From positions 1,575,988 through 1,621,207 of the forward strand of contig MU053588.1 of NCBI GenBank assembly GCA_013239625.1: DNA of 45,220 bases. Reading direction: 5' to 3'. This stretch comes from Lama guanicoe (lineage: Eukaryota). The notes beneath the pieces are model-generated. The model searched no databases, was not told the origin of the DNA, and saw only the letters and a list, made by a program, of their open reading frames with translations. The position numbers and the translations under genes are program-made. Shown here in pieces: positions 1-45,220 of this stretch. Position 1 is the first letter of the stretch. Every line of letters starts with the position of its first letter.

Positions 1-2
1 AT

Positions 3-3516
<3,514 letters not shown>

Positions 3517-7327: not shown

Positions 7328-8229
7328 GGCAGTGTGCTCGGTGATCCTGCGGATCATCTCTTGCTTCAACAGTGTTTGGACAGAACAGACTCAGGGACGC
7401 CCCTTGCTCCAGCCTCCGACCACTCTTCAACCTTTTTTCTAGTTGCAACCTTCAGAAGCAGCCACTCTGCTACCCTCAGCCTCGGGGACCAGCCAACACC
7501 ATTTTGTGAGCTTAACTCCTTATTACCAATCCACCATGAGCTCCCAGATTCGTCAGAATTATTCCACCGAGTTGGAGGCTGCCGTCAACCACCTGGTCAA
7601 CATGCATCTGTGGGCCTCCTACACCTGCCTCTCTCTGGGCTTCTATTTCTGCCACGATGATGTGGCTCTGGAGGGCGTGGGCCACTTTTTCCGCGAATTG
7701 CCCAAGGAGAAGCGCGAGGGTGCTGAGCATCTCTTGAAAATGCAAAACCAGTGTGGTGGCCGCAGCCTCTTTCAGAACATGCAGAAGCCATCTCAAGATG
7801 AGTGGGGTAAAAACCAGGACACTATGGAAGCTGCTATTGTCCTGGAGAAGAACCTGAACCAGGCCCTTTTGGATCTGCATGCCCTGGGTTCCACCCACCC
7901 AGACCCACACCTCTGTGACTTCTGGGAGGGCCACTTCCTGGATGAAGAGGTGAAACTCATCAAGAAGATGGGCGACCACCTGACTCACCTCCACAGGCTG
8001 GCTGGTCCCCAGGCTGGGCTGGGCGAGTATCTCTCCCAAAGGCTCACCCTCAAGCATGACTAGGAGCCTCTGCAACCCCACGGCCTTTGTGGAGCCCCTC
8101 TGGTGTCAGCGCTTCTGCCTGAAGCCTCTCTCTGTGGTCACCAGACAGCTTTTTAACCATCCTGGAGCCCTCTCCCAACCCTTGGACCACATGGTAACAA
8201 TAAAGCTTTCTGCAACAGAAAAAAAAAAA
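7328..8229 (+). pseudogene. FTL: Processed (retrotransposed) ferritin light chain copy: full-length 5'UTR, intronless open ORF 7536-8063 (175 aa), 3'UTR and poly(A)
   Basis: ATG at 7536 in ccacc[25 protein letters not shown]...[13 protein letters not shown] has the FTL length and no introns. AATAAA at 8199-8204, A11 at 8219-8229. Many R->H/W/C changes at former CpG codons. Confidence 0.93.
7357..7389 (+). promoter_or_regulatory. Iron-responsive element (IRE) hairpin in the FTL retrocopy 5'UTR
   Basis: TCTCTTG-C-TTCAA-CAGTGT-TTGGA-CAGAACAGA: CAGUGN loop at 7370-7375, 5-bp upper stem, unpaired C7364. Confidence 0.9.
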
Positions 8230-14304: not shown

Positions 14305-17089
14305 ATGGAGAAGGTGCAGGACGGACAGGCGCTCGGTGGCGGGATGGAGGCCGACCAGCCCGCAAGCCCCCAGGAGCCGCCGTCGCCGCCCTCGCCCCCG
14401 TCGCCGCGGTCGCCCGCGGCCCCCGAGGCCCCCGAGCTCCTCGCGCCCGAGCCGCCGACCGAGGCCTCCGCGCGGCAGCTGCTGCTGCAGGAGTGGGCGC
14501 CGCCGGGCGGGAGCCTGGAGCTGCCCCCTCGCCTCACCTGGAAGCTGCTCTTCCTGCGGCGGCCGCTCTACCGCAACCTGCTGCGCTCGCCCAACCCCGA
14601 AGGTGCGGGACGGCGGCCCGGCCGGGCTGGAGCCGCCCGAAGGCCGCCGCGTCCCCGTCTTCTTCCCCTAGGCTCGCTCACTCTGACCCTCTGTCTCTGC
14701 TTTCCGCCGCTCTCTTCTGTCTCTCCGTCTGTCTCTGCGTCTGTCTGCAACTCTTTATTCCTCTACATCATTCTCTACCTCTTTTCTCTCATTGTGCAGC
14801 TGTCTCCTTGCATCTCTCTGTCCCACCTGCATCTCCGTCTCTGTCCCTTTTCGTGTCTGTCTGTCTCTCCCTGTGTCTCTTTGTCCCACCCTGTACCTCT
14901 CTCCCTCTCCCTCTGCTCATATTCTCTTTCTCTCGGTGCCTGTCTCTCTGTCTCACCGCAAAGCCCTCCCGTTCCCAGCATTGTCCCTCGGTCCCCAGGA
15001 CCTTCCCAGGGCGCTCTCAGGGCCCTGACTCACTCATCCCTGCCAGGCTGGTCTGGCCTGACAGGCGTGGCACTGATTCCTGTCCTTCCAGCGGAGCCCT
15101 GGGGGCAGGGAGTGGGGAGCATGAGGAAGGTGGGCAGCCTCAGCTCGCCTGAGGCTCCACTTCCCTGCACATTTCAGGCATCAACATCTACGAGCCAGCG
15201 CCCCCTACTGGTCCCACCCAGAAGCCCCTGGAGGCCCTGGGTAAGCTATTTGTGGCTGGCCGGGTGGGGAGGGGGTGGTCCTGGAGAATAGGTGCATTCT
15301 AATCCTTCACTCCTCCACCTGCCAGGCAATTTCCGTGGGTGGCACATTAGGACTGAGAATCTCCAGCAGAACCTCAGGTGAGTGGCCAGGACCCGTGTGG
15401 TCTGAGTGTGACTCCCTGCTCTCGCATTCCTTGCTGTGGGACCTGGAGTAACTCTCTTTGACTCTCTGGGCCCCAGTCTCCTGCTCTGTAAACAGAGTTC
15501 GTCATAAGAGAGAACATATGGCAAAGGATCTGACCAGGACTAGCTTGCACATAGTAGGTGGTCAATAAATAGCAGCTAATACTGTTTCTGCGCTCAGCCT
15601 TTCTGTGGGAGGTGGAGGCTCAGCCAGGCCACCAGCTGTTCTCGATTAAACCAGGCCCTGCTTCTGCACAGAGGGTGAGACGGAGTGACTCAGGGGCTCA
15701 GAGTTATGCATCCCAGGGTTGGGCTCCCAGCTCTGCCATTTCTTTTCTTCTTAATCTTGGCAAATTACTTCCCTTAGTGAGCCTCGGTTTCCAGTTTCCC
15801 CATCTGCAGCCCGGGGTTCAGAATGCATCACCCTTAGAGGAGCTTGTGCAAGCTGAGTCTGCGAGGTGCTGAGTGAGGGCTCAGGGCCTCTATGTGGGTG
15901 CCCTTGACATCACTTCGATGTCAGGATGCCTGCCATGATCAGGGTGTCCTGCTTCTGGGGGATGCCTGAGAATCCCAGCAAGTGACAGACCTCACCTCCT
16001 TCATGCCCTCTCTCACAGCTGGACTGTGAAGCAGCAGTGTGTGGACCTTCTGGCCGAGGGCTTGTGGGAGGAGCTGCTAGATGATGAACAGCCACACATC
16101 ACGGTCATGGACTGGTACGTGCCTCTGCCCAGCCAGCCTGACCAGCCAGGTGGCACACAGGGTCTCCTCAAAGGGCAAGCCTCACCCTGTCCTGCCGCTG
16201 CAGGATCCAGCCCTGCCCACCTCTCTGGCCCCTTCTCTCTGATTCTCAGTTGTTCAAACATGCCAGCCCAGAGGCTGTTCCTTCTTCCCTGGATCCTGGC
16301 CACCCTCTTTTCTAGAAACAAATTCCTCCCTCTCCTTTAAGAGTCGGTGCACATGGCTCCACCAGGAAGCGTTCCCTGACCACTGCCAAACTGGGTCAGA
16401 TGCATTATGTTCCAGTGCCCCAGATGTCCCCCACCCCAGCCCTGACCATTCCTGATTGTCACTGCCTGGTGACATGTCTGCCTCCCCCACTGGACCATGA
16501 ATCCCATGAAGGCAGGGCAGGGGGCTGTCGTGGTCACTGCTGTGTGGCCAGCACCACCCATCTCCAGTGCACAGAGTGGATGCCAGTGAGTGTGTGTTGA
16601 ATGGTGACAGAGCCAGGGGTTGGAACTGGGAGCTTGGGGCAGTGGTGGCAGCTGATGGCCTGGCCCCCACCCCCAGGTATGAGGACAGCCGGCTGGACGT
16701 GTGTGTGTATGAGCTGCACGTCTGGCTGCTGGCAGCTGACCGCCGCACAGTCATTGCACAGCACCATGTGGCCCCCCGGACGTCTGGGAGAGGGCCCCCC
16801 GGCCGCTGGGTCCAGGTGAGGCTCCCTACTGCGGCCACCACCCGTACCCACGTGGTCATGTCCCAAGACTTCGCAGAGGGAGGAGGGAGGAGAGCAGGAT
16901 TTCTGGGTCCCTAATAAGGACTTCTTCCTGACACCGGGGCTTCCACAGGTGTCCCACGTGTTCCGCCAGTATGGCCCCGGCGTGCGCTTTGTCCATTTCC
17001 TGCACAAGTCCAAGAACCGGCTGGAGCATGGTGGGCTGCGGCGGACCAGGGTGACCGACTCCTCCGTGTCTGTACAGTTCAGGGAGTGA
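14305..17089 (+). CDS. NCCRP1: NCCRP1 (FBXO50), F-box-associated (FBA) domain protein, 6 coding exons, 262 aa
   Basis: GT-AG exons 14305-14602, 15178-15240, 15326-15377, 16019-16114, 16677-16815 and 16949-17089 total 789 nt in frame: MEKVQDGQALGGGMEAD...LYRNLLRSPNPEG/INIYEPAPP.../SWTVKQQCVDLLAEGLWEELLDDEQP.../VSHVFRQYGPGVRFVHF...VSVQFRE*. Exon 1 lies in a CpG island. Confidence 0.95.
14660..14960. repeat. CT-rich low-complexity tract in NCCRP1 intron 1
   Basis: Long polypyrimidine run of tctctg/tctctc units. Confidence 0.7.
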
Positions 17090-18543
17090 CGGGCTAACTC
17101 CGGGCCCATGCTGACCCCTTGTCTCACCCATACACCCCTTGAAACCTCCCTGAGCCGTTAGCATCTCTTTGTCTCCTTATCACTTCTGGCCTCTTAGCAT
17201 CTCTCTGACCCCACAGCAGCTCCCTGGCCCTTAGAAGTCCCTAACCCTTAGCACCTCCTTGTCCCTGAAGCGCCACCATGTTCCCTTAGCACCTCCCTGC
17301 TCCCTTGATACCCTCATGACCCGTCAGCTGCTCCAGGATCACTTATCACCTCCTACACCCCTTAATCCTGCCTGGCCCTTGGTTTCTCATTTGACATCTC
17401 CACACATCTTTGAATGTCTGACTCTCTGGCATTTTCTCCGCCCTCTCTGAGTACCACGAGGGTAGTGGCACTTCTTCCAGTGCTTGATGGATGGTAGGGG
17501 CTCAATAAATCTTTGTTGGCTGAAATAAATAAAAACACGTGCCCAAGGATGCTGACTATTTCCTTGCTGTTTGCTCCTTCGAACTTGACCAAGTTCATTT
17601 CCCACTTGTGCATCCTCTAATCCTTGATCCTCCAGCCTCTCACAACCCCTGAACCTTTTACACCTCCCTTGACCTCTGATCTCTTCACTTATCCCCAATG
17701 TACGACCTCCAAGCATCTCTGCTTACCTCTTCTGCCATATCTCTTAACTCTCAGAATCTCCCCCAATTCCCTTCCTCCTTCCAACCCCAGCTGTCAGCCC
17801 CCTAGAGTTGTGCCCCTACCTCTCTCCTCTCCAAGACCCCTCATTTCTTTTCTCTAGTTCCTTCTCTACCTCCTCCCAAACCCAGCTATCCATCAAGGGC
17901 CCTTACCCTTGGGAGAAGTAGGGGAACATAGGTTGAAAAGTCGAATTTGCAGAAAGATGCAAATTTGAACTAAAGTGGTCTCCAGGTGTTGGGGAGGGAG
18001 GCATTGAAAGTATTTAACAACCCATAAGTCCTGGGCTGTGGCCAAATCACAAAACAGACCCTGGCCCTAGCCTGGGGTAGGGTCCTTGAAGGCCTCCTTC
18101 TGTCCCATGCATGAATTCTGAGGGAATCCAGAGGTCCCGGGCAGGCCTGAAGAATCGGGGAGCTTTTAGAGAAGGGCTGTCCACCAAAAGTGTGGGAAGC
18201 AGTTAGACGTTTAACAATCTGCATGTCACATGTGTCCTGTGGTGGGGGGTGTGCACACACCTAAATCCATGTCAGGACCCATGTCCCTGGCATGGGCTGA
18301 CCCAGGCCTCACCACCATGCTCTCCTCACCATCCCACCCTGTGTTCATGTGGACTCGGGTCCCGAGAACAGTAGACAGCAGACCGGGATGACTTACAAGG
18401 GCTGTATTACAAGGAAGGCAGGGTGGGGGCAGGCAGAAAGCTCTCTTCTCTTGGATCTTGGGGACTTCAGCAGATGCCACGGACAAGGCCAGGTGAGGGC
18501 CTCAGCAATTTGTGGAGGATGGAGGTGACAGACCTCTAAGGTA

Positions 18544-19872
18544 TCAGTTGCAACTGCAACAGAATCAAAAATTATTACTACAGGATGCCAGGGGCTCAGA
18601 GACTTAAAGTGTGGAGAGTTCTAAGCCTGAGAAGGGGTGGGAAGCTGGAGCTGGGCTTGAAGTTCAGGAGCTAGGCATCCTGGCCTGGGAGTTTGGGCCT
18701 GGGGGCTCCTGGAGCTCTTGGGGATAGAGGGGCAGCTGGGGGTGGTTTTAGAGGGCGTTCTGGCTAGATCAAGGGCCGCGAAGTCTGTGAGCGTGGATAT
18801 GTGAGTCCAGGGTGGGTTCAGGGGCCTCCAAAGTTGGGTCTGGGGGCTTCAGAACCTTCACAGGGGCTCTGGAACTGGTTTCTCCGGCCACAGCCACGGT
18901 TGCACTAGAAGGCCTAGGTGGGTGGAGCATGAGGGCTAGATAGGATATTCCTAGACTTAGGTCTGGGGCCTTGAGTTCTGGGTCAAATGTAGAATCTGGA
19001 AGTTCCAGAGACAGGTCTGAGAGTTCTGGGATCTGATGACTTGGGGGTGGGGAAGAACTGGTTTTGGTTCTGAGGGCTTCAGGGTGAGCTAGGCTTGGGG
19101 ACTCCGGAGTTAGTCTGCACTCCCTGGAAAGTGCAGCTGCCAGTAGGTAGGCAGGTGGGGGATTCAGGAAGGTTGGAGGGGGCACTCCCAGAATGGAGGC
19201 AGGAGGGTTGGGTCAGCTTCTGAGTCTGGGAATCTCAGAGTTGGGTCTGGGAGATCCAAGGGGCATGGGCTTGGGGGGAGGTGGGGGTTGGGGTGAGGAG
19301 AAGGGGGATCTCCAGGACTGGTTCTAAGGATGCCCAATTTGGGTCAAAGATTCAGGGGGCGGGGCGGGGGGTGCGGTCTGGAGCCCCGGTGCTGGGTTGG
19401 GAGCTGGGGAAGCAGATGTGCGGACTAGGAGACACTGGCGGGGCGGGGTCCGGACGGGCGCGGGCGCGCACCTGCAGTAGAGCGCGGAGATGGCGTTGGA
19501 CCAGTCCCCGAAGATGCCGCGGCGGTACTCTTCCAGGCGCGGGTAGGTGCCGGCCGAGAACTTGCGCTTCTTGCCGGCCTTGCCGCGAATGGACCACACG
19601 GTGAGCTCGCAGCGCTGGCCCACCACGAGCGACGAGATGACGTTCGTCCAGTCAGAGGGCAGGTAGGGCAGGTCGGCGCCCGGCTGCAACGCCAGCTCGG
19701 CGCCGCCGCAGCAGTTCTCGTAGTAGGGGTCGCTCTTGTCGTAGAGCTTGGCGCACGTGCGCGTCCCGTTGGCGCTCTTGAGGTCGGCGGGCACCGGGCA
19801 GGCGCCTCGGACGCCGGGTCCGGCCACCAGGGCCAGGGCCAGGGCCAGCAGCAGTGGGCACAGCGGGGACAT
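18544..19872 (-). CDS. SYCN: Syncollin, 2 coding exons, 136 aa precursor
   Basis: Exon 1 is 19872-19472 ([32 protein letters not shown]...[18 protein letters not shown]...[10 protein letters not shown] + AG, donor gtgcgc). Exon 2 is 18553-18544 after ttctgttgcag (T TGC AAC TGA), giving ...YCSCN*. Signal peptide present; synteny NCCRP1-SYCN-IFNL. Confidence 0.93.
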
Positions 19873-19903
19873 GGTGACACTGCGAAGCGACGCCCCCATG
19901 TCC

Positions 19904-27873: not shown

Positions 27874-28021
27874 AATAACCTATTTTTAATTAAGTTATGT
27901 ACTTTTTAAAATATAATGCTATTTCACACTTAATAGACTGTGGTGTAGTGTAAACGTAACTTAGACATGCACTGAGAAACCAAAAAATTGTGTGACTGAC
28001 TTTGTTGATACTCCAGTTATT

Positions 28022-28079
28022 TTTTTTTTTTACATTTTTTATTGATTCATAATCATTTTACAGTGTTGTGTCAAATTCC
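28022..28079 (-). mobile_element. Very short 5'-truncated young L1 3' end with perfect 15-bp TSD
   Basis: TSD GATACTCCAGTTATT at 28007-28021 and 28080-28094; insert is poly-T plus acattttttattgattcataatcattttacagtgttgtgtcaaattcc, same family as 37141-37513. Confidence 0.8.
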
Positions 28080-29044
28080 GATACTCCAGTTATTATGGTG
28101 GTCTGGAAACAAACTCCCAGTATCTCTAAGCTTTATTTTACATAATAGATCCAAATATCATTTTGACTTACAATCAATATACAATTTATTAATGCAATTT
28201 TACTTTTTTACAGAAAATAAAAATTCTATACATACAAACATCTATTCTCAAGCTCTGTCCACTGAGAGGGTAGAGGCAATGAGATCTTTGCAGCAATCAG
28301 CCCACCTAGCACCCAAATCTTGGTTTCCAAATACTGTTCTCCACTAAAAAGAATCAGAGCTGTATGGAGAAATAGCTGGTTACAGAGAAGGGACAGGAAA
28401 ATTACAAAATGAGCCTGGAAATCTGATTCCAGAAGGTGAAGAAGTACCCAAAAATGAGGGAAATACATCAAAAGGACATGAGCCCTCTGGAAAGGGTTCT
28501 CACTGGCCTCATATGGGACAACCTGAGCATCACAGTAAATGATAGTAAAGAATTTCAATCCATTGAAAAAAAAAGAATTCATGAGTCCATGTTGATATAA
28601 ATCCATTGGTAAGTACATATGAGGGAGGGGAGGAAACTCCTCTTAAGAGTAGAATGTCTGCTAAGGAATGTAGAAAGATGGATGAAGGTAGAGGCTCACA
28701 ACCGGGTAGGTGTCATAATGGTCCAGGAAGGCAAAGCCATCAATAGATGCTGAAAAGACTGGGTCAGAGTTTGAGAAGTCACAGGAATTAACATGGTTGC
28801 AAAGACTCTCCACATCCTTGTTTATTACAAAGAAAAAACTAGAAACTGCACAGTGGAGAAATTTGGCAGGCACCATCAGAAAAAATAAAGTAAGAAAAAT
28901 TAAAAGGCATTAAATTCTGGAGGATATTTTATACTTAGAGCACAGCTTGGCTCCCACAGTTACATTTCACCTGCAAAATAGCTACATGTGATCTGGGGAC
29001 CCTACTGGACAGTTCAGCTAAAATAGACCTTACTGTTTCAGAAT

Positions 29045-29975: not shown

Positions 29976-30112
29976 GGGTATGAGTTTCAGAATTCATACA
30001 CATAAATACAAAAATAGAGACTTGCAGGCAATAAATTAGGAAAGTGGTTCTGATGCATCAATACATAAACAATATGTAAGATGCTGGAACAGGTTGCAGG
30101 TAGATCTCAGGC

Positions 30113-31544
30113 TCAGACACACAGGTGTCCGCTGGCGACACATTTCAGGTCCCGGGTGAGGAGGCGGAAGAGGTTGAACATGACAGAGGCCTCGAGGCAG
30201 TCTTGGGACTCCTGTGGGGGGGATGGCTCAGTGGTCCCCGTGCCTGGGCTCCCAGCTGCCCCCAGACATCAGTTTCCCCACCGCGGTCACTCACCTTCTT
30301 CGGGGCCTCCTGGAGCCGGTGCAGCCAGTGGTGGAGGCGGTCCCGGGGCCTGGGGCCTGCTGTGGGCTGAGCTGGGACCTGTTGGCAGAGGAGGGGGTGT
30401 GAGGGGGTGGACAGGGCCTGGGACAGAGGAGGACATTCAGGTGGTCGGAGCCTAGACACGCTGCGGGTGGCCCGAGCACTCACACAAGCCTGGAGCTGGG
30501 AGTGGATGTGGCCCAGGGTGTGCAGGGGCTGGTCCAGGGTGCTGTCCAGGGATGAGTTAGCCATGGTCCCCAGAACGGCCAGAGTCAGGGCCACCTCAGC
30601 CTTCAAGGCCACGGGGCGCTCCCACACCTGAGGCGGGGAGACAGGGCAGGGGAGAGTTGCACGTGAGAGAGGACAGGGGAGGAGGGACAGGTGGGGAGGA
30701 CACAGGCAGGGAGAGTTGAAGGGGAAGGTCGGGGTCAGGGGAGAGGCACAGCCGATGTGGTCAGCGGAGGGGAAGGGGTCGGGGACAGGTGGGCAGGGCG
30801 GGGAGAGGAGGAGGCGGGAGGAGGAGGAGGGGAGGGGCCGCCTGCAGAGCCAGGTGAGCTGGGCCAGGTGAGGGCAGGTGGGCCTGACTCTCCGGACTCA
30901 CCTGCAGCTGCCCCAGGGCCCGGGTCCTGGGGAAGATGCGCGAGCTGCAGTTCCAGTCCTTCTGCAAGAGTGACTCTTCCTAGGGAGCAAGAGCAAGGTC
31001 AGCCCACAGCACGACCGAGGGGAGACCCCGGTGAGACTGGAGGGAGGCCGACCTCAGGAGGAGGGGAGGTGAAGGTCCAAAGGACGGCAGAGGCACGACC
31101 ACCACAGGAGGACAGGGCTCAGCCCACTGCGGGGTGGACGGGGGGCCGGTGAAGGGAGAGCAGGTCCCCCTTGAGCAGAGGAAGCCCGGGCACCCACAGC
31201 GCGGGGACGGAGGGGAGCCCACAGCAGGCGGGGCTGGGGGACACTCACAAAGGCGTCCTTGGCTCTCTTGAAGGCCTGCAGCTCTTGTGGGGACAGAGAC
31301 TTGAATTGGGCCAGGTGGCAGCCCCTTGCGCCCGGGAGGGCCCTGAGGGGTGAGGGGACAGGAACTGCTCCTGTCCTGGTCAGCGCTGCGGTCACCAGCA
31401 ACAGCCCCAGCATGCAGCCCGAGGTCATGCCTGTGTTGTGGAAGGAGAGGAACGTGAGGGGACGTAGGTCACTGGGGACTGAGGGGAGGGCGTTTCGCGG
31501 GGCTCAGGTCCCGGGCAATGATGTGGGAGCTCACCCAGCTTCAT
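30113..31544 (-). CDS. IFNL3: Interferon lambda-3-like (IFNL2/3 type), 6 coding exons, 198 aa (194 aa from the second ATG at 31428)
   Basis: GT-AG exons 31544-31535 (MKL-G), 31430-31249 (MTSGCMLGLLL...GCHLAQFKSLSPQELQAFKRAKDAF), 30979-30902 (EESLLQKDWNCSSRIFPRTRALGQLQ), 30627-30484 (VWERPVALKAE...SQLQAC), 30378-30295 (VPAQP...QEAPKK) and 30211-30113 (ESQDCLEASVMFNLFRLLTRDLKCVASGHLCV*). Frame intact; six conserved Cys in the mature chain. Confidence 0.95.
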
Positions 31545-31744
31545 TCCTGGTCTCTGATCGCTGGTCTCTGTCAGCAGGTGGGGGATCAAGTGTCCACTCT
31601 GAGGCTGTCGCCTGAGATCTCTCAGTCTTGTTTGATGTCTCTGACCCCAGTCTCCTCTTCTGGACCTCAGCCCGCTGCTCGTCCGAGTGTCTGAACTTCC
31701 AGCTCCGTCTGAGGTCTAATTCCTGCCTGAGCTCCATGGTGTCG

Positions 31745-31898
31745 CTTTTAGCCTGTGCAGCTGGGCAATCCCAGCTGATGTAGGAAAAGTGAAAACACAG
31801 CTAGAGGGTGACACCGGCCACCAGAGAGGCCCAGGCAGGAAAGCCCAGAGCAGGGCGGGGCCTGGGAGCCAGGTGAGCAGCTGAGTGAAAGAGAAACT
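31745..31898 (-). promoter_or_regulatory. IFNL3 promoter: TATA-like, NF-kB, IRF-E and ISRE sites
   Basis: Minus CTAAAAG at 31751-31745; GGGATTGCCC at 31772-31763; GAAAAGTGAAAA at 31784-31795; GAAAGAGAAACT (ISRE AGTTTCNNTTTC) at 31887-31898. Confidence 0.75.
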
Positions 31899-33557
31899 GA
31901 CCTCCATTAGGGCTCACCTCCAAGAAAGTGCGTTCTGAACACAAAATCCAGGCTGGGGCAGCTGCAGCCCCACATGGGGGTGTCTTGTGCAGTGGCCAGG
32001 CTAGATCTAGGACTGGGGTGCAGAGGGGACAGAGGGATTCCTTGCTGCAGGATGCCCCAGTGCAGGGAGTGGGGGGAAAGAGCACGCCTAGAAGGAGTTG
32101 CCGGGAAGAACCTGGACCTTCCAAGTGGGAGGCTGTTTAGGTGATGGGAGAAGATCTGGGGGTGCTGCTGGGGGTGGGGAGAGAGAGTCAGAAGGCAAAA
32201 CACACCCATTAAGAGAGGAGACCAGCTCCTCCCCACCTTTCGCAACCTGGTACACACAAAGATGGAATGGGGGAGGAGGCGAGCCCGCGCTAACATCTCT
32301 AATTGTCCAGGCATAGAAGGACCCAGGAACAGGAGGCTCTGCTCTGGAATTGTGGGCCGACCAAGCCTTCAAGGCAACCAGCTTGGTTTGTGACAAACAC
32401 CTTCATTTGTTCACCAAATATTTATTCAGCCACCACTTTGGGTCAGACCCTGTTCAAGGTGCCAGGGCAAGAGCACTGAAAAAAGAAAAAGACATACCAC
32501 AATCCTTCATGGAGCTTTTTGCTAGAGAGGAGGAACACACAGTGGAGGTCGGGGAGTCGGGCTTGTGGTGTGTATTGTGTCAGAGAACGTCAGATAACAG
32601 AAAATGAAAAAATGAAACGGGGTTGAGAGCAGAGTGCGGGAGGAAGTTTGCATTAAATGAGGTGTCTGAGAAATGACATTTAGGGAAAGACCTAAAGGAA
32701 GTGAGGGAGGGAGCTCTGTGAAGATCCGAGGGGGAGCATTCTGCGAAAAGGGAACAGTCAGTGCAAATGGAAAACAGACACCACCGCCACCCCCACTTTT
32801 GGTGTATGTCTCACCCTGTCACAGAGGCTTGGCCACAACGTGGTTAAATACCCACAGTAGCACCAAGGACTTACTGTGCTTTGCCTACATGTCAAATACA
32901 GATGGAAGTTTAGAGGCTCAGAGAGGTTAAGAGACTTGTTCAAGGCCACACAGCAAATAACTAGTGAGGGCAGGATTTTAACTGAGTTTTGCCTGGCATC
33001 AGGCAATAACCACTGCACCCTCCAGCCTGACTGTAGCGAGACCTCCTGGACCTGGAAGTGATGGATTTCTTGGACAGAAGTTGCTGAGTCCTTTTTGACT
33101 GTTACTCCCACCCTCTCTTTCCCTCATTTTAATTCCAGGGAGAGGGTAGACTGAAATCCGTGTTGGGTAATATCTTTGAGGTCCGATATGCAAAAATGTG
33201 TTAAAACCAATAGCAGGGATGTGCAAGTCACCGCCGGTGTTCTGGTCAGTTTCTGTCACTTGGAGGAGGCCTTACCTCAGGGGAGGAGACAGTGAAACAA
33301 GAATGAATTTTGAAAATTAACTTATTATCTCAAAATCCCTAGACATCATAATGTCTTTCTTAGAAAGAAAGCTCAGGGAGTGGTTAGGAACATGTGATCC
33401 AGAGCATGAAGCCTCGGGGGCTCCCCACTAGCTGTGTGATCTTGGGAAACAGGCTTTGCAGTTGGCCACAAAGATTACCCATCCTGCCCAGATCTCGATG
33501 AATGTAAAAAGTACAATTGTTTGCACTTTTATGTGTGTGATTATTTCATGGAGACCA

Positions 33558-33563
33558 TTTATT
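33558..33563 (-). terminator. Candidate polyadenylation signal, IFNL4 copy A
   Basis: Minus AATAAA about 790 nt after the stop; mirror of 43628-43633. Confidence 0.55.
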
Positions 33564-34350
33564 AAGATCATTCTGTGACTTCAGCTGGAAGCTTCACGAG
33601 CACTGTTTCAATGTGTATTACTCATGGCAAGGGACGTGTAATAATATCATGGCATAGAAGACTAAACGGAGGCTGGGTACACAATTAAGTAACGGGGCAG
33701 AATTGAAACTCAGGTCACCTGATTTCCCTCTCAGCATTTTGTGCTGTACAGTCACCCTCAAAATGATCACAGAGAAACAACCAATGCAAATGCAGTAATA
33801 TTTAATAACTGGCAATAAATTAACCCAAGAAGACAAAAGAGCAAACATACATAGGAACTTCATAAATACAAAACACACAAAAGTAACAGAATTCAAAAAA
33901 CTACTTAACAGAAGGACTCTTGCCCAGTCCCTCATGGAATGAGGTCTCCCCAGCAGAGAGATCCAACAGTCCCATATTCATGGAATGTCAAAGCGGGCAC
34001 TGAAGGTTCAAAGCAGGCGTTGGAACCTGTCAAGGGACAGGGAGGTTTCTGTAACCACAGAAGTAGAAACTGGTCCATGGTACGTGGTGGTCAGCGACCA
34101 AGGTCGACACGGAATCCAGTCTTTTCCTGCCAGCCCGGGGCCCTGGCAGATCTTAGGGCGACACTTCCCACGGAAATAGAGCGGCTTCCGAGGGGAACTG
34201 GTTCTGGCTCTGGGAAAAGGGCGCCTCTGGCACCAGCGCAGGCGGGTGGAGGCTGAGAGACCCGCCGGGTCCAATGGGGCAGCGGAGGGGGGCGGCGCCC
34301 GCAGCCAGGCGACCTCGGAGCTTCGGGTCCCAGGCGGGGCCGCGGCGGGA

Positions 34351-35691
34351 TCACAGACAAGGTCCCGAGTTTGCCACCAGCCGCAGGTCCCACGCGAGCA
34401 GGCGCAGGAGGTTGAAGATGACGCTGGCTTCATGACACCGAGGCGACTCCTGGAACCCGGGAAGGAGGCAGAGCCGGCCTGAGTCAGGGCCCCCCCTGCA
34501 GTCCGTCACCGCTCCACGGCGCGCGCCCGGCCCGTCTCAGCCTCACGCCGTCCTCCCTGCGGTCTAACCGCTTGACCGCCCGCTCCACTCACAGCTCTGC
34601 GAGTTTTGTGACGCCTCCTGGGCGGCCGCGGGGACCTCCTCCAGGAGCCTGGCCGGACCAGCTGCAGCTGGAGGGGAACCGCACGTAACTTGAAGACGGC
34701 GAAGAACGGAGCCTCCCTCCCAGGTGGCTCCGCCCCTCACCCTCCCGGCCGCAGACCCAAGCCCGGATTAGGGGACACCGAGCGAGCTGGGAGGGGTGCG
34801 GGGCCAGGGCGGGACCGGCACTCACGCAGGCCGCCACGTCCCGCCCCGCGGCCGCCAGCAGCTCCAGGGTCGGGCCGACGCCGGGGAACAGCTCGGGGCT
34901 CGGCAGGCTGCTCAGCACGGCCTGGGCGTCGGCGAGGCCGCGGGCCACCAGGCGGAGTCGGGCGCAGGACTGCGGGCACCGAGCGGCAGTTAGATGGGGC
35001 CGCGCTCGGGGCCCAAGTCCCCAAGCCCCTGCCGGCCGCGGGCCTCACCGACGGCGGCGGAGGGTTCCTCCTCGGGTGGAACGAGCAGTTGCGCGGCCTC
35101 CAGCTCAGCGTCTCTTCCTCCTGCGGGACAAGGGCCGGGATGATGCTGGGGATCCTCGCGGACTCCTGCACGTGGATCGGGCCGGCCCACAAGGTTGTGC
35201 TCATCGTGTCCTGACCAGAGAGCTCTCTGAAGGCGCGAGGCAGGCCTGAAATGCACCTGCGCTCCAGGTGCGGATCCTGCGCAGGGACGTGGAGCCGAGT
35301 CCACCTGAAGGGGGCGCCCCTCTGTGACAGCCACTAAGGCCCTGTATGAGCTGACCACCAGGGCGGCTGGAAAGGTGTGACCTGAATTCTGGACCCCGAG
35401 ATCCAGGATGCGCCTGCTGGACGCTAGGACAAGAGGGCCCCTCGGGACAAAGTTTGTCGTCCTGGGACCCGGGGGCCCGGTGGTCCAGGGTCCGGGGGGC
35501 AGAGGCGTGTGGGCATCACTCACATAGCGGTTCCTCAGGGCCTTGACTGCCTCCAGTGCCCGGGGATCCAGGGAGCGGTATTGGGAGAGGAGGCAGCGCC
35601 CGGGAGCCTCCACACCGGGGTCCACCGCCACGCCCACTGTCACCAAGACCCACAGCCCCATGGCCACCGCGGCTGCGCCACTCGGCCCCAT
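34351..35691 (-). CDS. IFNL4: Interferon lambda-4, copy A (5 coding exons, 185 aa, intact)
   Basis: Exons 35691-35524, 35120-35049, 34969-34826, 34667-34593 and 34449-34351; mirror image of the + strand copy with the same translation. Confidence 0.94.
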
Positions 35692-35996
35692 CTCTGCTCC
35701 TGCAAGAGGCAACAGACGTCAGGGAGCCCAAAGAGAAAGCCCCCAAGTCCAAGCCCCTGCCTGTGGTCAGACTCGCAGAGGGACTGACGCTCAGAGGGCG
35801 GGCACTGAGCCCTCTCAGGGGGAGAGACAGGATGGGTCCAGACACCTACTCCTACCTTCAGCCTCTCTCCCCTCACTCCTCACCTGCCATGTCTTCAGTG
35901 CCACTTGCTGCAGCAGGGCCTGCCTTCCAGTGTCCCCCAGGTGGTGTCCAGATTGTTGTCCACCTGGGACAGTGGTACCTGCACCCTCCATGGTGG

Positions 35997-36063
35997 CTTT
36001 TAAGTGAGGGGCTGAGAATGATGAGCAGCCGGGCTTCCCCGTGCAGGTTGTTTCCTAACGTCA
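35997..36063 (-). promoter_or_regulatory. IFNL4 copy A core promoter (TATA-like, NF-kB-like, CRE-like)
   Basis: Mirror of 41128-41194. Confidence 0.5.
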
Positions 36064-37140
36064 TTGCTGGCCATTGATCGGCCTGGAGAGTTGCAGGCAT
36101 GGTGTGAGGACTTTACCCGCTCGTGGGACAGTGCCAGCAATGATTCTACCCAAACTCTTCTGCCACCAGTTATGGTTTCTGTCCCTGTCTGTATCCTTTT
36201 GCTTTCTTTTTGTCACCCTCGGTTTCCTTATCTCTGTTGTATAATAATAACCAGCCCTTATACAGTGTTACTGTTACTAGGCCTTGTTCTAAGTAATTGA
36301 TATGCACATGTCTCATTTAATGCTCAAAAAATAACACTGCCAGAATTTTTCTACCTCCAATTCATAGGTGGGAAAACTGAGCCACAGTAAAGGGAAGGAA
36401 CTTTTCCAGGATACAAAGTAATTGGCAGAGGCAGGATTTGAATATATACTCAGTCCAGCCTCAAAGCTTGGTCTAACCCATTAACTCCCCCTAAATATCT
36501 AATTCAATGCCTCCTTCTCTCTCTTCACGGTCTGTCTCTGTTTCATTCCATTTCTCTTTCTGTCCCTCTCTGTATGCCTCCCTTTTGTCTCTGTTGCTCA
36601 GTTCCTGGTTTTGTCTCTGTCCATGTCTAATTCCATCTTTCTTTTTCTAGCAAACATTCAGGCCAGGGTTTTTCTGTCTGTTCTGTCTCAATCAGTCTCT
36701 TTTTTTTGAATGAAAAATGAAATCTACCACTTATCTTGATAAAATTAGCAATGCAGGATCATTGGTTAAAGCTTGAAAAATATAGACGTAACATAAGGGA
36801 GGAAAAAAACCCACCTATAACTTCACCACCCACCTCTCTCCCCTCACCCCAGCTCTGGAACAATTTTTCCCATGTGTAGAAATGTTAAACATATATATTT
36901 GTGCATATGTTTTCTGATTATCGAAGTAACACATTCATTATAAAGATACAGTCAATACAAAAACATACAACTTGGAGATTTAAAGTCTTGAATCCCACTT
37001 CCTGGACGTAATCTTTTTAGCCATCAGTTACTATTCCTCTTTTTTTTTCTCTCTCTCTCTTTCAATGAACAATTTCTCCCAAATTGAAACCAGGCTGTAT
37101 AATGTTTAGCAGCTTGCTTCTCGTGTCTTACCATTGTCTC

Positions 37141-37513
37141 TTTTTTTTCTTTTTCTTTTTTAACATTTTTTATTGATTTATAATCATTTTACAATGTTGT
37201 GTCAAAGTCCAGTGTAGAGCACAATTTTTCAGTTATACATGAACATATATACATTCATTGTCACATTTTTTTCTCTGTGAGCTACCGTAAGATCTTGTGT
37301 ATATTTCCCTGTGCTATACAGTATAATCTTGTTTATCTATTCTACAATTTTGAAATCCCATCTATCCCTTCCCACCCTCCGCCCCCTTGGCAACCACAAG
37401 TTTGTATTCTATGTCTATGAGTCTATTTCTGTTTTGTATTTATGCTTTGTTTCTTTGTTTTTGTTTTTTAGATTCCACATATGAGCGATCTCATATGGTA
37501 TTTTTCTTTCTCT
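37141..37513 (-). mobile_element. Young 5'-truncated L1 3' end at the inner edge of the left arm
   Basis: Poly-T start, L1 3'UTR-like body (ccctgtgctatacagt, ggcaaccacaagtttg, tagattccacatatgag); imperfect TSD ttaccattgtct (37128-37139) / ttaccattatgtct (37514-37527). Confidence 0.75.
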
Positions 37514-38129
37514 TTACCATTATGTCTTGTTTGCATTCCCCCACATCTTTAGTTATACTGTATCAGTGAAGGTCCCTGCAGGAGACAGATGACCAAATCA
37601 GTTTAGGGTAACTTGAGGTGGGTTTAATACCAGGAGTATTTACAAACGGATTGGATAGTGAAGGAAACAGATGAGGAGTAGTGCAAGGCCTTGGGACCCA
37701 CATGCATGAGGGTCTATCACGTGTAGGCCTGAACAAAAGGGAGGGAAGGGAGTGGTTACCTGACCTGGAAGGGAGGGGTCAGGTACACAGGTGGAGGACC
37801 CAGAGAGGTAGTGGTTGCCCTGAATGAAGGAAGCCTGAGGAGTAAATACTCTAACACTCTCCTTCCCCTCTCTCTGGCCCTACTCCTAGGCTCCCCATTG
37901 CCTGCACCCAACAGAAGCCAAAGGCCAGCTTCCTGGGGCCCAGAGGTGGGTGGAGAAGTGGGAGGGGCAAAAGGGAGACATCCTGCCTATACCACTAGTA
38001 AGGCTTCCATTCTAACAGGATTATTGAATAACCATCCCCTGTTGGTGAACATTAATGTTCTTTTCAGTGTTTTGTTAAAGTCATGGCTCTCAAGGCTGGG
38101 GGAGAGAAAGGGAGTAATTTTTCATTCTT

Positions 38130-39000
38130 TTAACAGTATCTTTCATAGGGCTGAAGTTTTATATTTTTCCAACTCATTGATTTTCTTCTTTTATGGATGA
38201 TGCTTTCATGATTTTAAAAAGTCATCACCTTGGTCCCTTACATTTTCTCCTATTTTAAGTTCTAGGAGTTTTATAGTTCTGCACTTCACGTTTAGGTCTA
38301 TGATACGTTTTAAGTTAATTTTTGTTAAATGTGTAAGGTCTGTATCTAGGTTTTTTTTTTTCCCTACGTGAAAGTTCTTTCAACACCATTTGTTGAAAAG
38401 ACTATCTTCTCATCATTGAATTGCCTTTGTTCCTTTCTTAAAGACCAGTTGACTATATTTGCATGGGTCTGTTCCTGAGCTCTCTATTCTGTTCCATTGA
38501 TTTGTCTATCCTTTCATTAATATCACACTGTTTTGATTAGTGTAGCTTTATAGTAAGTCTTGAAAGTCAGAGAGTGTCAGTCCTCCAACTTTGCTCTTCT
38601 CCTTTAATATTGTGAGAGCTATTCTGGGCCTTTTGGATCTCTGTATAAACTTTTACTTTGTCAATATCTACAAATTAACTTGCTGGGATTTTGATTGGAT
38701 TGCAAGGAATCTATAGATTAAGTTGGGAAGAACTGACATCTTGACAATATTGAGTCTTCCTATCTATGTTCATAGAGTATTTTCATTTTTAGATGTTCTT
38801 TTATTTCTTCCATCAGTTTTCCTTATATAGATCGTGTTCAGTTTTTGTTAGATTTGTACTTAAGCATTTCATTTTTGGGTGGTGCTGACGTAAATGGTCT
38901 TTTTTTTAAATTTCAAACTCGAATTGTTTATTGCTATTATACAAGAAAGAAATAGACTTTTGTATATTAACCTTCATCTGGCAACATTGCTATAATCATT
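38130..39000 (-). mobile_element. Old L1 ORF2 fragment (antisense) in the spacer
   Basis: tctaggagttttatagtt, caacaccatttgttgaaaagact, gttgggaagaactgacatcttgacaatattgagtcttcc L1 hallmarks. Confidence 0.8.
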
Positions 39001-39004
39001 TATG

Positions 39005-39445
39005 GTTCAGAAATACGTTTTTAAATGCATAATATTAAATACACAGGACTATGACGGAAACTGACTATATTGAAACACAGTTACCAAAACATAAAAGCAA
39101 TTTTGTGATAAGCAATACATATGCCTTTTTATTAATGTGTTAAGTAACAAGATATTGCAATGAGTTTAATAACTACTATACTTTTGAGGTAGTAATGAGA
39201 GTAAATGATATTTCAAGATGTGTGCCACATCTCTAACATGTTATGAAATATTTATGACTCCTTTTAGTGACAAAGTCACAGATTCTGCTAATACTATTGT
39301 GATTTGTTACTTACATTCATCATGGAAGGAAATGCTAAATTTCAGTTAAGGTTAGTGAAGGTGGAGATGCAGCTTTTTCTAGTGTTAAGTTCACCCTCCC
39401 CTGAATCCTATCACGGGGTGGTCCACGAACCCCAGGTTAAGCTAG
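39005..39445. mobile_element. Charlie1-like hAT fragment in the spacer
   Basis: gtgacaaagtcacag...ggaaggaaatgctaaatttcagtta...ccccaggttaag. Confidence 0.6.
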
Positions 39446-41127
39446 CCTTGCAGCAGTTAAATAGAATGAAGTAGATCTATATGCATTGACATGGAAAAAC
39501 TTTCAAGATATATTACTGAGTGAAAAAAGTAAATTGCTGAACAATACACATGGTGTGACACTCCTTGTGTTTATAAGTACTCACACATGCAAAAGCAATT
39601 CAGCAGAGAAAAATCGCCTTTTCAACAAATAGTGCTGTAGTAATTGAACCCCCATAGGCTAAAAAAATGTACCTTGACCTAAACCTTACACTAAAATAAA
39701 AATTAACTCAATATGTGACATGGACTTAAACATAAATTATAAAGCTATAAAACTTTGAGAAAAAATTATGAAAAACCTCTTCAGGCAATAGGAGGTGCTG
39801 GAAGCAGATTGAGGGAGGAAGGAAAGCAAAGTTGGAGAATTTATTCTCCCTTCGGGTTCCCTCCTGGCAGGGATGAGATCTGACAGTGGCTGGATTCCTC
39901 TGTCTCCAGCCACACATCTCACCTAGGATGGTAACAGCTCTCCGTGTTGCCAGCCTCCAGGTGCATCACCGCCCTTTGTTGATTTCATTAATCCTACTCA
40001 CTTTTTCCCAGGTTAAACATTTGAATAGGTCCCCTGCTTACTGTACAAAGAGACAATGGTAAGACACGAGAAGCAAGCTGCTAAACATTATACAGCCTGG
40101 TTTCAATTTGGGAGAAATTGTTCATTGAAAGAGAGAGAGAGAAAAAAAAAGAGGAATAGTAACTGATGGCTAAAAAGATTACGTCCAGGAAGTGGGATTC
40201 AAGACTTTAAATCTCCAAGTTGTATGTTTTTGTATTGACTGTATCTTTATAATGAATGTGTTACTTCGATAATCAGAAAACATATGCACAAATATATATG
40301 TTTAACATTTCTACACATGGGAAAAATTGTTCCAGAGCTGGGGTGAGGGGAGAGAGGTGGGTGGTGAAGTTATAGGTGGGTTTTTTTCCTCCCTTATGTT
40401 ACGTCTATATTTTTCAAGCTTTAACCAATGATCCTGCATTGCTAATTTTATCAAGATAAGTGGTAGATTTCATTTTTCATTCAAAAAAAAAGAGACTGAT
40501 TGAGACAGAACAGACAGAAAAACCCTGGCCTGAATGTTTGCTAGAAAAAGAAAGATGGAATTAGACATGGACAGAGACAAAACCAGGAACTGAGCAACAG
40601 AGACAAAAGGGAGGCATACAGAGAGGGACAGAAAGAGAAATGGAATGAAACAGAGACAGACCGTGAAGAGAGAGAAGGAGGCATTGAATTAGATATTTAG
40701 GGGGAGTTAATGGGTTAGACCAAGCTTTGAGGCTGGACTGAGTATATATTCAAATCCTGCCTCTGCCAATTACTTTGTATCCTGGAAAAGTTCCTTCCCT
40801 TTACTGTGGCTCAGTTTTCCCACCTATGAATTGGAGGTAGAAAAATTCTGGCAGTGTTATTTTTTGAGCATTAAATGAGACATGTGCATATCAATTACTT
40901 AGAACAAGGCCTAGTAACAGTAACACTGTATAAGGGCTGGTTATTATTATACAACAGAGATAAGGAAACCGAGGGTGACAAAAAGAAAGCAAAAGGATAC
41001 AGACAGGGACAGAAACCATAACTGGTGGCAGAAGAGTTTGGGTAGAATCATTGCTGGCACTGTCCCACGAGCGGGTAAAGTCCTCACACCATGCCTGCAA
41101 CTCTCCAGGCCGATCAATGGCCAGCAA

Positions 41128-41194
41128 TGACGTTAGGAAACAACCTGCACGGGGAAGCCCGGCTGCTCATCATTCTCAGCCCCTCACTTAAAAG
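41128..41194 (+). promoter_or_regulatory. IFNL4 copy B core promoter (CRE-like, NF-kB-like, TATA-like)
   Basis: TGACGTTA at 41128-41135; GGGGAAGCCC at 41151-41160; TTAAAAG at 41188-41194 followed by ccaccatggag, as in the IFNL3 promoter. Confidence 0.5.
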
Positions 41195-41499
41195 CCACCA
41201 TGGAGGGTGCAGGTACCACTGTCCCAGGTGGACAACAATCTGGACACCACCTGGGGGACACTGGAAGGCAGGCCCTGCTGCAGCAAGTGGCACTGAAGAC
41301 ATGGCAGGTGAGGAGTGAGGGGAGAGAGGCTGAAGGTAGGAGTAGGTGTCTGGACCCATCCTGTCTCTCCCCCTGAGAGGGCTCAGTGCCCGCCCTCTGA
41401 GCGTCAGTCCCTCTGCGAGTCTGACCACAGGCAGGGGCTTGGACTTGGGGGCTTTCTCTTTGGGCTCCCTGACGTCTGTTGCCTCTTGCAGGAGCAGAG

Positions 41500-42840
41500 A
41501 TGGGGCCGAGTGGCGCAGCCGCGGTGGCCATGGGGCTGTGGGTCTTGGTGACAGTGGGCGTGGCGGTGGACCCCGGTGTGGAGGCTCCCGGGCGCTGCCT
41601 CCTCTCCCAATACCGCTCCCTGGATCCCCGGGCACTGGAGGCAGTCAAGGCCCTGAGGAACCGCTATGTGAGTGATGCCCACACGCCTCTGCCCCCCGGA
41701 CCCTGGACCACCGGGCCCCCGGGTCCCAGGACGACAAACTTTGTCCCGAGGGGCCCTCTTGTCCTAGCGTCCAGCAGGCGCATCCTGGATCTCGGGGTCC
41801 AGAATTCAGGTCACACCTTTCCAGCCGCCCTGGTGGTCAGCTCATACAGGGCCTTAGTGGCTGTCACAGAGGGGCGCCCCCTTCAGGTGGACTCGGCTCC
41901 ACGTCCCTGCGCAGGATCCGCACCTGGAGCGCAGGTGCATTTCAGGCCTGCCTCGCGCCTTCAGAGAGCTCTCTGGTCAGGACACGATGAGCACAACCTT
42001 GTGGGCCGGCCCGATCCACGTGCAGGAGTCCGCGAGGATCCCCAGCATCATCCCGGCCCTTGTCCCGCAGGAGGAAGAGACGCTGAGCTGGAGGCCGCGC
42101 AACTGCTCGTTCCACCCGAGGAGGAACCCTCCGCCGCCGTCGGTGAGGCCCGCGGCCGGCAGGGGCTTGGGGACTTGGGCCCCGAGCGCGGCCCCATCTA
42201 ACTGCCGCTCGGTGCCCGCAGTCCTGCGCCCGACTCCGCCTGGTGGCCCGCGGCCTCGCCGACGCCCAGGCCGTGCTGAGCAGCCTGCCGAGCCCCGAGC
42301 TGTTCCCCGGCGTCGGCCCGACCCTGGAGCTGCTGGCGGCCGCGGGGCGGGACGTGGCGGCCTGCGTGAGTGCCGGTCCCGCCCTGGCCCCGCACCCCTC
42401 CCAGCTCGCTCGGTGTCCCCTAATCCGGGCTTGGGTCTGCGGCCGGGAGGGTGAGGGGCGGAGCCACCTGGGAGGGAGGCTCCGTTCTTCGCCGTCTTCA
42501 AGTTACGTGCGGTTCCCCTCCAGCTGCAGCTGGTCCGGCCAGGCTCCTGGAGGAGGTCCCCGCGGCCGCCCAGGAGGCGTCACAAAACTCGCAGAGCTGT
42601 GAGTGGAGCGGGCGGTCAAGCGGTTAGACCGCAGGGAGGACGGCGTGAGGCTGAGACGGGCCGGGCGCGCGCCGTGGAGCGGTGACGGACTGCAGGGGGG
42701 GCCCTGACTCAGGCCGGCTCTGCCTCCTTCCCGGGTTCCAGGAGTCGCCTCGGTGTCATGAAGCCAGCGTCATCTTCAACCTCCTGCGCCTGCTCGCGTG
42801 GGACCTGCGGCTGGTGGCAAACTCGGGACCTTGTCTGTGA
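41500..42840 (+). CDS. IFNL4: Interferon lambda-4, copy B (5 coding exons, 185 aa, intact)
   Basis: GT-AG phase-0 exons 41500-41667 (MGPSGAAAVAMGLWVLVTVGVAVDPGVEAPGRCLLSQYRSLDPRALEAVKALRNRY), 42071-42142 (EEETLSWRPRNCSFHPRRNPPPPS), 42222-42365 (SCARLRLVARGLADAQAVL...GRDVAAC), 42524-42598 (LQLVRPGSWRRSPRPPRRRHKTRRA) and 42742-42840 (ESPRCHEASVIFNLLRLLAWDLRLVANSGPCL*). Confidence 0.95.
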
Positions 42841-43627
42841 TCCCGCCGCGGCCCCGCCTGGGACCCGAAGCTCCGAGGTCGCCTGGCTGCGGGCGCCGCC
42901 CCCCTCCGCTGCCCCATTGGACCCGGCGGGTCTCTCAGCCTCCACCCGCCTGCGCTGGTGCCAGAGGCGCCCTTTTCCCAGAGCCAGAACCAGTTCCCCT
43001 CGGAAGCCGCTCTATTTCCGTGGGAAGTGTCGCCCTAAGATCTGCCAGGGCCCCGGGCTGGCAGGAAAAGACTGGATTCCGTGTCGACCTTGGTCGCTGA
43101 CCACCACGTACCATGGACCAGTTTCTACTTCTGTGGTTACAGAAACCTCCCTGTCCCTTGACAGGTTCCAACGCCTGCTTTGAACCTTCAGTGCCCGCTT
43201 TGACATTCCATGAATATGGGACTGTTGGATCTCTCTGCTGGGGAGACCTCATTCCATGAGGGACTGGGCAAGAGTCCTTCTGTTAAGTAGTTTTTTGAAT
43301 TCTGTTACTTTTGTGTGTTTTGTATTTATGAAGTTCCTATGTATGTTTGCTCTTTTGTCTTCTTGGGTTAATTTATTGCCAGTTATTAAATATTACTGCA
43401 TTTGCATTGGTTGTTTCTCTGTGATCATTTTGAGGGTGACTGTACAGCACAAAATGCTGAGAGGGAAATCAGGTGACCTGAGTTTCAATTCTGCCCCGTT
43501 ACTTAATTGTGTACCCAGCCTCCGTTTAGTCTTCTATGCCATGATATTATTACACGTCCCTTGCCATGAGTAATACACATTGAAACAGTGCTCGTGAAGC
43601 TTCCAGCTGAAGTCACAGAATGATCTT

Positions 43628-43633
43628 AATAAA
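43628..43633 (+). terminator. Candidate polyadenylation signal, IFNL4 copy B
   Basis: AATAAA about 790 nt after the stop; alternative ATTAAA at 43385-43390; ATTTA motifs in the 3'UTR. Confidence 0.55.
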
Positions 43634-45220
43634 TGGTCTCCATGAAATAATCACACACATAAAAGTGCAAACAATTGTACTTTTTACATTCATCGAGATC
43701 TGGGCAGGATGGGTAATCTTTGTGGCCAACTGCAAAGCCTGTTTCCCAAGATCACACAGCTAGTGGGGAGCCCCCGAGGCTTCATGCTCTGGATCACATG
43801 TTCCTAACCACTCCCTGAGCTTTCTTTCTAAGAAAGACATTATGATGTCTAGGGATTTTGAGATAATAAGTTAATTTTCAAAATTCATTCTTGTTTCACT
43901 GTCTCCTCCCCTGAGGTAAGGCCTCCTCCAAGTGACAGAAACTGACCAGAACACCGGCGGTGACTTGCACATCCCTGCTATTGGTTTTAACACATTTTTG
44001 CATATCGGACCTCAAAGATATTACCCAACACGGATTTCAGTCTACCCTCTCCCTGGAATTAAAATGAGGGAAAGAGAGGGTGGGAGTAACAGTCAAAAAG
44101 GACTCAGCAACTTCTGTCCAAGAAATCCATCACTTCCAGGTCCAGGAGGTCTCGCTACAGTCAGGCTGGAGGGTGCAGTGGTTATTGCCTGATGCCAGGC
44201 AAAACTCAGTTAAAATCCTGCCCTCACTAGTTATTTGCTGTGTGGCCTTGAACAAGTCTCTTAACCTCTCTGAGCCTCTAAACTTCCATCTGTATTTGAC
44301 ATGTAGGCAAAGCACAGTAAGTCCTTGGTGCTACTGTGGGTATTTAACCACGTTGTGGCCAAGCCTCTGTGACAGGGTGAGACATACACCAAAAGTGGGG
44401 GTGGCGGTGGTGTCTGTTTTCCATTTGCACTGACTGTTCCCTTTTCGCAGAATGCTCCCCCTCGGATCTTCACAGAGCTCCCTCCCTCACTTCCTTTAGG
44501 TCTTTCCCTAAATGTCATTTCTCAGACACCTCATTTAATGCAAACTTCCTCCCGCACTCTGCTCTCAACCCCGTTTCATTTTTTCATTTTCTGTTATCTG
44601 ACGTTCTCTGACACAATACACACCACAAGCCCGACTCCCCGACCTCCGCTGTGTGTTCCTCCTCTCTAGCAAAAAGCTCCATGAAGGATTGTGGTATGTC
44701 TTTTTCTTTTTTCAGTGCTCTTGCCCTGGCACCTTGAACAGGGTCTGACCCAAAGTGGTGGCTGAATAAATATTTGGTGAACAAATGAAGGTGTTTGTCA
44801 CAAACCAAGCTGGTTGCCTTGAAGGCTTGGTCGGCCCACAATTCCAGAGCAGAGCCTCCTGTTCCTGGGTCCTTCTATGCCTGGACAATTAGAGATGTTA
44901 GCGCGGGCTCGCCTCCTCCCCCATTCCATCTTTGTGTGTACCAGGTTGCGAAAGGTGGGGAGGAGCTGGTCTCCTCTCTTAATGGGTGTGTTTTGCCTTC
45001 TGACTCTCTCTCCCCACCCCCAGCAGCACCCCCAGATCTTCTCCCATCACCTAAACAGCCTCCCACTTGGAAGGTCCAGGTTCTTCCCGGCACTAAACAG
45101 CCCTTGGAAGGTCCAGGTTCTTCCCGGCAACTCCTTCTAGGCGTGCTCTTTCCCCCCACTCCCTGCACTGGGGCATCCTGCAGCAAGGAATCCCTCTGTC
45201 CCCTCTGCACCCCACCCCAG

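Follow-up and report, generated by a model that had tools for sequence, protein, structure and literature searches.

Two intact IFNL4 genes in the arms of an inverted repeat

The window, meaning the whole 45,220-nucleotide stretch of Lama guanicoe DNA analyzed here (contig MU053588.1), holds a type III interferon (IFNL) cluster in which two intact IFNL4 genes lie in the arms of a near-perfect inverted repeat. The left arm (32013/4-37143) comprises the stretch lying between the IFNL3-like promoter and IFNL4, the whole IFNL4 gene, and the 1.45 kb that precede its start codon. The right arm (40047-45220) is the reverse complement of the left arm and continues past the window end; since it reaches base 45220, its outer boundary lies beyond the window, and the arm length of 5.1 kb is a minimum. 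The arms are separated by a repeat-derived spacer (37144-40046; 2,903 bases, 37% G+C), whose sequence differs at the two inner junctions.

Self-BLAST of the window returned one long inverted match, 40047-45214 against 37143-32014 (99.2% over 5,168 columns). Apart from this arm pair, no off-diagonal match of at least 60 columns was longer than 373 columns. The exact arm-to-arm alignment had 5,130 aligned columns in three blocks (85, 4,601, and 444), with a column identity of 99.9%, a longest identical stretch of 4,156 bases, and four differences. The sole substitution, T at 32543 (forward strand) versus C at 44648, is a TpG/CpG transition, as expected of a real mutation. A homopolymer differs in length (T8 versus T9 at 36700/40491), and a 37-base insert at 45093-45129 is present only in the right arm, where it forms an imperfect copy of the adjoining 42-base unit, five bases short. 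The fourth difference is a 5-base repeat at the very end of the window. Two of the four thus fall within the final 130 bases, where consensus errors are plausible; the 37-base insert could be either a real change or an end-of-contig error. Self-comparison and exact alignment confirmed the arms, the spacer, and the four differences listed in the first-pass annotation, and the feature is real as described there: the IFNL cluster has an inverted two-block layout with near-identical introns and flanks. Furthermore, 18 of 24 listed sequencing runs (7 studies, 6 organism labels) contained 0.88 to 0.95 of the sampled words from 30100-40046, a count that shows the presence of the single-arm sequence and spacer and is uninformative on copy number.

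Each arm carries IFNL4 with GT-AG phase-0 introns, an open 185-codon frame, and a signal peptide-like start. Copy 1 (34351-35691, reverse strand) has its exons at 35524-35691, 35049-35120, 34826-34969, 34593-34667, and 34351-34449. Copy 2 (41500-42840, forward strand) has them at 41500-41667, 42071-42142, 42222-42365, 42524-42598, and 42742-42840. All five exons are identical between the copies, which point away from each other and share identical upstream DNA over 1.45 kb. Both encode an intact protein of 185 amino acids, which would double the IFNL4 dosage. The gene assignment is supported by several comparisons. Three of the exons matched Pfam PF15177 (IL28A), and exon 3 had IFN-lambda 4 as its only significant match in the Protein Data Bank (E 9.5e-18). 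The protein equals, letter for letter, record P0118, which alpaca records call interferon lambda-4-like and which matched PF15177 with an E value of 1.5e-34. A crude motif scan of the DNA upstream of IFNL4 gave two IRF-like words and no NF-kB site; no conclusion rests on it.

The IFNL3-like gene (30113-31428, reverse strand; five exons, 194 amino acids) lies outside the visible left arm. Its protein is identical over 194 columns to P0227, an alpaca record, and to P0217. Judging from the camelid IFNL3-like protein records, a mirror copy is expected beyond the window end, which cuts the right arm: in alpaca, two groups of IFNL3-like accessions encode the same protein on a single 77.9-Mb contig, and dromedary has four models. 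The complete arm would then measure at least 7 kb.

IFNL4 and IFNL3-like proteins are uniform within camelid genera

P0118, the alpaca IFNL4, appears under two RefSeq accessions in separate number blocks. Dromedary IFNL4 is represented by four GenBank models, each numbered next to an IFNL3 model, plus two RefSeq blocks, and wild camel IFNL4 by two accessions. These separate accessions probably correspond to separate IFNL4 loci. Alpaca and Camelus IFNL4 differ at six positions, and all five Camelus rows had the Camelus residue wherever they were covered. In line with this, the IFNL3-like protein showed six fixed differences between alpaca and Camelus and none within either genus; a sixth row, partial and from Bactrian camel (P0218), with 114 shared columns had one of the six differences and a different front end.

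The two arms are more alike than orthologues of different species, because they differ by one substitution in 5,130 columns, while alpaca and Camelus IFNL4 differ at 6 of 185 residues. Had the arms been independent since a 1% split, about 51 sites would be expected to differ, and four were seen (Poisson 2e-17). Both proteins are uniform within a genus and different between genera, and the arms show 4 rather than about 51 differences; therefore, either the unit was recently reduplicated in each genus or an old pair was homogenized.

In one dromedary annotation (P0003, P0119, P0223, and P0224), IFNL3 and IFNL4 have four models each, and the accession numbers of the two genes interleave. This set could be either a four-unit cluster or a false duplication.

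IFNL4 copies group by lineage across mammals

We placed 133 of 135 labeled IFNL4 rows in a quick tree; two were dropped for low coverage, and unnamed rows were excluded. The tree contained no pair of mammal-wide paralogue clades. Instead, the copies grouped by species, genus, or family in Afrotheria, primates, bats, carnivores, rhinoceros, shrew, whales, and ruminants. Some same-species rows may be one gene in different assemblies. In five further species, the copies were 0 to 5 residues apart. At the protein level, IFNL4 copies thus cluster by lineage and not by position in the camelid genera, the mammalian tree, and the ruminant exons described below, with exceptions in Phyllostomus, elephants, and buffalo.

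In Phyllostomus bats and in elephants, IFNL4 copies cluster across species (P0038/P0144 versus P0040/P0047; P0101/P0090). These copies seem to have escaped homogenization.

In ruminants, one IFNL4 copy is marked by a 33-residue gap in exon 1, with loss of the signal peptide; seven rows from caprines or antelopes have this gap, as do two from deer (P0125, P0126, P0130, P0131, P0135, P0136, P0042, P0043, and P0210). Since bovids and deer have this gap in common, the gapped duplicate is older than the bovid-cervid split. Over exons 2 to 5, however, all nine gapped rows were nearer to a same-family full-length copy (0 to 5 differences in 129 positions) than to a gapped copy of the other family (7 to 11), and the two red deer copies were identical there. 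A single clade of gapped rows was rejected by the approximately unbiased (AU) test (p-AU 2.6e-9; 21 rows, with groups fixed before the tree and with Moschus P0037 and Dama P0022 outside the long group). At the protein-sequence level, such a mosaic is the signature of conversion acting on an old duplicate, and it is a finding in ruminants, not camelids.

Both oryx rows are gapped in exon 1; the lesion may have been copied to both IFNL4 copies.

The spacer contains a young L1-type end and mirrored old repeats

The family labels given here to the spacer pieces, L1 and long terminal repeat (LTR), are putative. A young L1-type 3' end (37144-37513, reverse strand) has a poly(A) tail that begins exactly at the inner boundary of the left arm. 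An imperfect target-site duplication (37128-37142 and 37514-37528; 13 of 15 bases) brackets it, and the target-site copy on the arm side has the same sequence as the right arm. The target-site match was not significant when scored as a free local alignment (38 of 200 shuffles scored as high), and only its position argues for it. The two mismatched bases fit conversion overwriting one copy, but ordinary decay could also have produced them. The young L1 would then mark the edge of conversion.

Farther inward, the two sides mirror each other in order and orientation: each arm is followed first by an LTR-like piece and next by an old piece of L1 type. The LTR-like piece at 37818-37903 (forward strand) is mirrored by 39783-39872 (reverse strand), with 71% identity over 83 columns. 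The old L1-type piece at 38244-38429 (reverse strand) is mirrored by 39590-39775 (forward strand), with 69% identity over 191 columns (E 8e-21). The chained mirror score of the spacer was 6,580. None of 304 control windows, which omit one stretch of about 1 kb, reached this value (best control, 2,621). The mirrored old repeats fit a decayed inner part of the same palindrome, which we regard as a hint only.

A continuous decayed mirror across the spacer was also considered and was rejected, since only these two repeat pieces align. The spacer has no tandem array above about 30 bases. An IFNL remnant was found neither in the spacer nor in the rest of the window, apart from an excluded stretch of about 1 kb (best E 0.15).

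Elsewhere in the window, at about 28007-28095, a 60-base L1-type 3' tip with a perfect target-site duplication of 13 to 15 bases is 92% like the element at 37151.

An old duplication kept alike by conversion is favored

We consider it probable that the camelid arms are an old inverted duplication kept near-identical by repeated nonallelic gene conversion. The locus would be the camelid form of a placental type III interferon mirror: IFNL3-like and IFNL4, both reading leftward, then the spacer, then IFNL4 and, beyond the window, IFNL3-like, both reading rightward. A break in one arm would be repaired with the other as template, either through fold-back or between chromatids, and new changes would be either erased or copied to both arms. 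Both IFNL4 genes would be kept working, with one promoter sequence in common. Conversion would halt where an insertion makes the arms differ, here at the tail of the young L1, and the old mirror would have decayed inside that edge. If the same arm pairing ended in a crossover, the spacer would be inverted; since no gene was found in it, the effect would probably be small. For the camelids, we infer both the age of the duplication and conversion as the mechanism.

The same near-identity would arise if the left unit had lately been copied and inverted in the South American camelid line, with its break in the T-run of the young L1 and an old LTR-like element as the landing site of the copy, and if similar separate events had occurred in other mammals by birth and death. 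The abrupt boundary, beyond which homology does not resume past the L1, agrees with such a recent event. So does the variable copy number, with four models in dromedary and a single IFNL4 subtype in pig, the latter according to PMC13511426; independent duplication is also preferred in PMC2654155. This explanation, however, requires the event to have happened in parallel in camels, in alpaca, and in most placental orders, leaves the ruminant mosaic unexplained, and turns the mirrored old spacer repeats into a coincidence. We regard it as unlikely. Slightly less likely still is that there are two real copies into whose arms an assembler or polisher wrote one consensus, so that the true identity is below 99.9%. 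The window does end inside an arm, with two odd short duplications in its last 130 bases, and even at 0.2% divergence 10 differences would be expected where four were seen (P 0.025). Against such flattening, one arm-specific CpG transition persists, and many assemblies made separately also show pairs that are identical or nearly so; moreover, it would reduce the identity figure, not the reading of concerted evolution. Fold-back chimeras typically show near-perfect arms that reach the sequence end, as the arms do here. A pure fold-back artefact is nevertheless unlikely: the spacer is 2.9 kb long, nonrepetitive, and joined to each arm by a different sequence, and several IFNL4 models exist in three Camelus or alpaca assemblies and in many other mammals. 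We consider it very improbable that a fold-back or mis-join left one true IFNL4 with an artefactual second arm.

Several points weigh against an old, converted pair. The junctions and the arm identity come from one assembly, with the DNA of a second camelid outside the comparison. The camelid comparison consists of protein records, which give no orientation or position. Several of the accessions may represent a single gene, as isoforms or as its versions in different assemblies, and the window's own assembly may be the source of the alpaca records. The up to four units in dromedary indicate that fresh duplication happens as well. Among the 31 species with at least two distinct IFNL4 rows, only 19 had copies that resembled one another more than they did the nearest other genus, and most of the 12 species that missed are from close genera, e.g., whales and caprines. 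Truly diverged copies occur in Phyllostomus, elephants, buffalo, and Myotis lucifugus, and the six rows examined include a single IFNL4 NCBI accession for each of pig and warthog. The ruminant exon-1 marker rests on predicted proteins. In the spacer, the mirror-order test was chosen after the pattern had been seen, its score comes mostly from the old L1-type piece, and the LTR-like piece scored about equally against its mirror (2,566) and against a third family copy elsewhere (2,479). Homology did not resume just past the young L1, where 38 of 200 shuffles scored as high.

On the evidence of the cross-species proteins, an old pair maintained by conversion is most likely and is favored over recent reduplication. 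The first-pass suggestion of an old palindrome kept by conversion is supported to that extent, for camelids at the protein rather than the DNA level.

A broader proposal, to which we give an even chance, is that IFNL4 has been a head-to-head, conversion-locked pair since the placental ancestor, with two working copies usual in mammals. Where conversion stops, and which copy escapes it, would depend on insertions and deletions, as in the decayed human copy, the ruminant copy without signal peptide, and the diverged Phyllostomus and elephant copies. If this holds, one-copy IFNL4 orthologue sets undercount the gene, and the choice between conversion and duplication raised in PMC2654155 would be settled for conversion.

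Relation to known inverted duplications

Conversion maintains other mammalian palindromes and inverted repeats, such as those of the Y chromosome and FLNA-EMD, where population data support both conversion and flipping. The guanaco locus resembles them in its near-identical inverted arms, which would be older than their identity implies, and in a unique spacer that could flip. It differs in that the mirror is small and carries immune genes, and conversion and flipping are here only deduced.

The name "IFNL4" in the paper on the human-mouse inverted duplication is reportedly an older name for a pseudogene. In human and mouse, according to that paper, blocks of about 6 kb with more than 97% identity lie inverted about 10 kb apart; it raises conversion, prefers independent duplication, and cites Lasfar et al. 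(PMC2654155). The human mirror layout invoked in the first-pass annotation is in outline that of this source. Human and mouse IFNL2/IFNL3 share with the guanaco locus the gene family, inverted blocks of about 5 to 6 kb, near-identical introns and flanks, and a unique spacer, but their identity is above 97% rather than 99.9% and their spacer about 10 kb rather than 2.9 kb (PMC2654155). Going beyond the first-pass annotation, the camelid homogenized block includes IFNL4, with both copies intact, whereas in human the identity of the second IFNL4-like sequence (P0113) is 85%, with 10 gap columns. Mouse differs in having no IFNL4, as stated in PMC4199494. In type I interferon clusters, paralogues likewise group by lineage and conversion is debated against birth and death, but these are large arrays of single-exon genes rather than one two-arm mirror of a five-exon gene (PMC6640115 and PMC13511426).

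In the "CRK/CRE" word close to the C terminus, the K of human IFNL4 is replaced by E in P0113. This site appears to be position 154, which is discussed in PMC6181419.

IFNL4 orthologues are treated in PMC4199494 and PMC4722605, whose main text, in the parts available, mentions neither duplicates nor conversion. We found no description of paired IFNL4 genes or of a camelid IFNL palindrome in the literature, although Gautam et al. 2024 (doi 10.1093/jeb/voae094) may cover them. The mirror layout is already known; what is added is a pair of IFNL4 genes that are both intact and identical, along with evidence for conversion from comparisons across species.

Type III interferons guard mucosal surfaces. 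In alpaca nasal epithelium infected with Middle East respiratory syndrome coronavirus, IFN-lambda 1 and 3 are strongly induced, according to PMC8195365, and several predicted camelid lambda genes are described as not yet cloned or validated in a 2026 review (PMC13343275). IFN-lambda 4 is presented as a gut antimicrobial protein in PMC11536128, a role in which gene dose could count. Two identical intact copies alter how camelid IFNL4 reads, variants, and knockouts are interpreted, and RNA reads cannot assign expression to either copy because the coding sequences are identical. Both arms of the camelid locus would fit within a single long read. The cross-species pattern also bears on whether the mirror shared by human and mouse reflects conversion or coincidence.

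Genes upstream of the IFNL cluster

Upstream of the cluster, the window contains the 3' end of a kinase gene (1-3516), a gene with an FBA domain (14306-17090), and syncollin (19472-19899). The kinase end is presumably PAK4 and the FBA-domain gene NCCRP1, which would give the order PAK4-NCCRP1-SYCN as at the human locus. Syncollin has two in-frame start codons, at 19899 and 19872. Between the kinase gene and the FBA-domain gene lies a ferritin light-chain-like retrocopy (7536-8063, forward strand), which is intronless, has a frame open over 175 codons, and ends in a poly(A) signal and tail, the latter at about 8217-8229.

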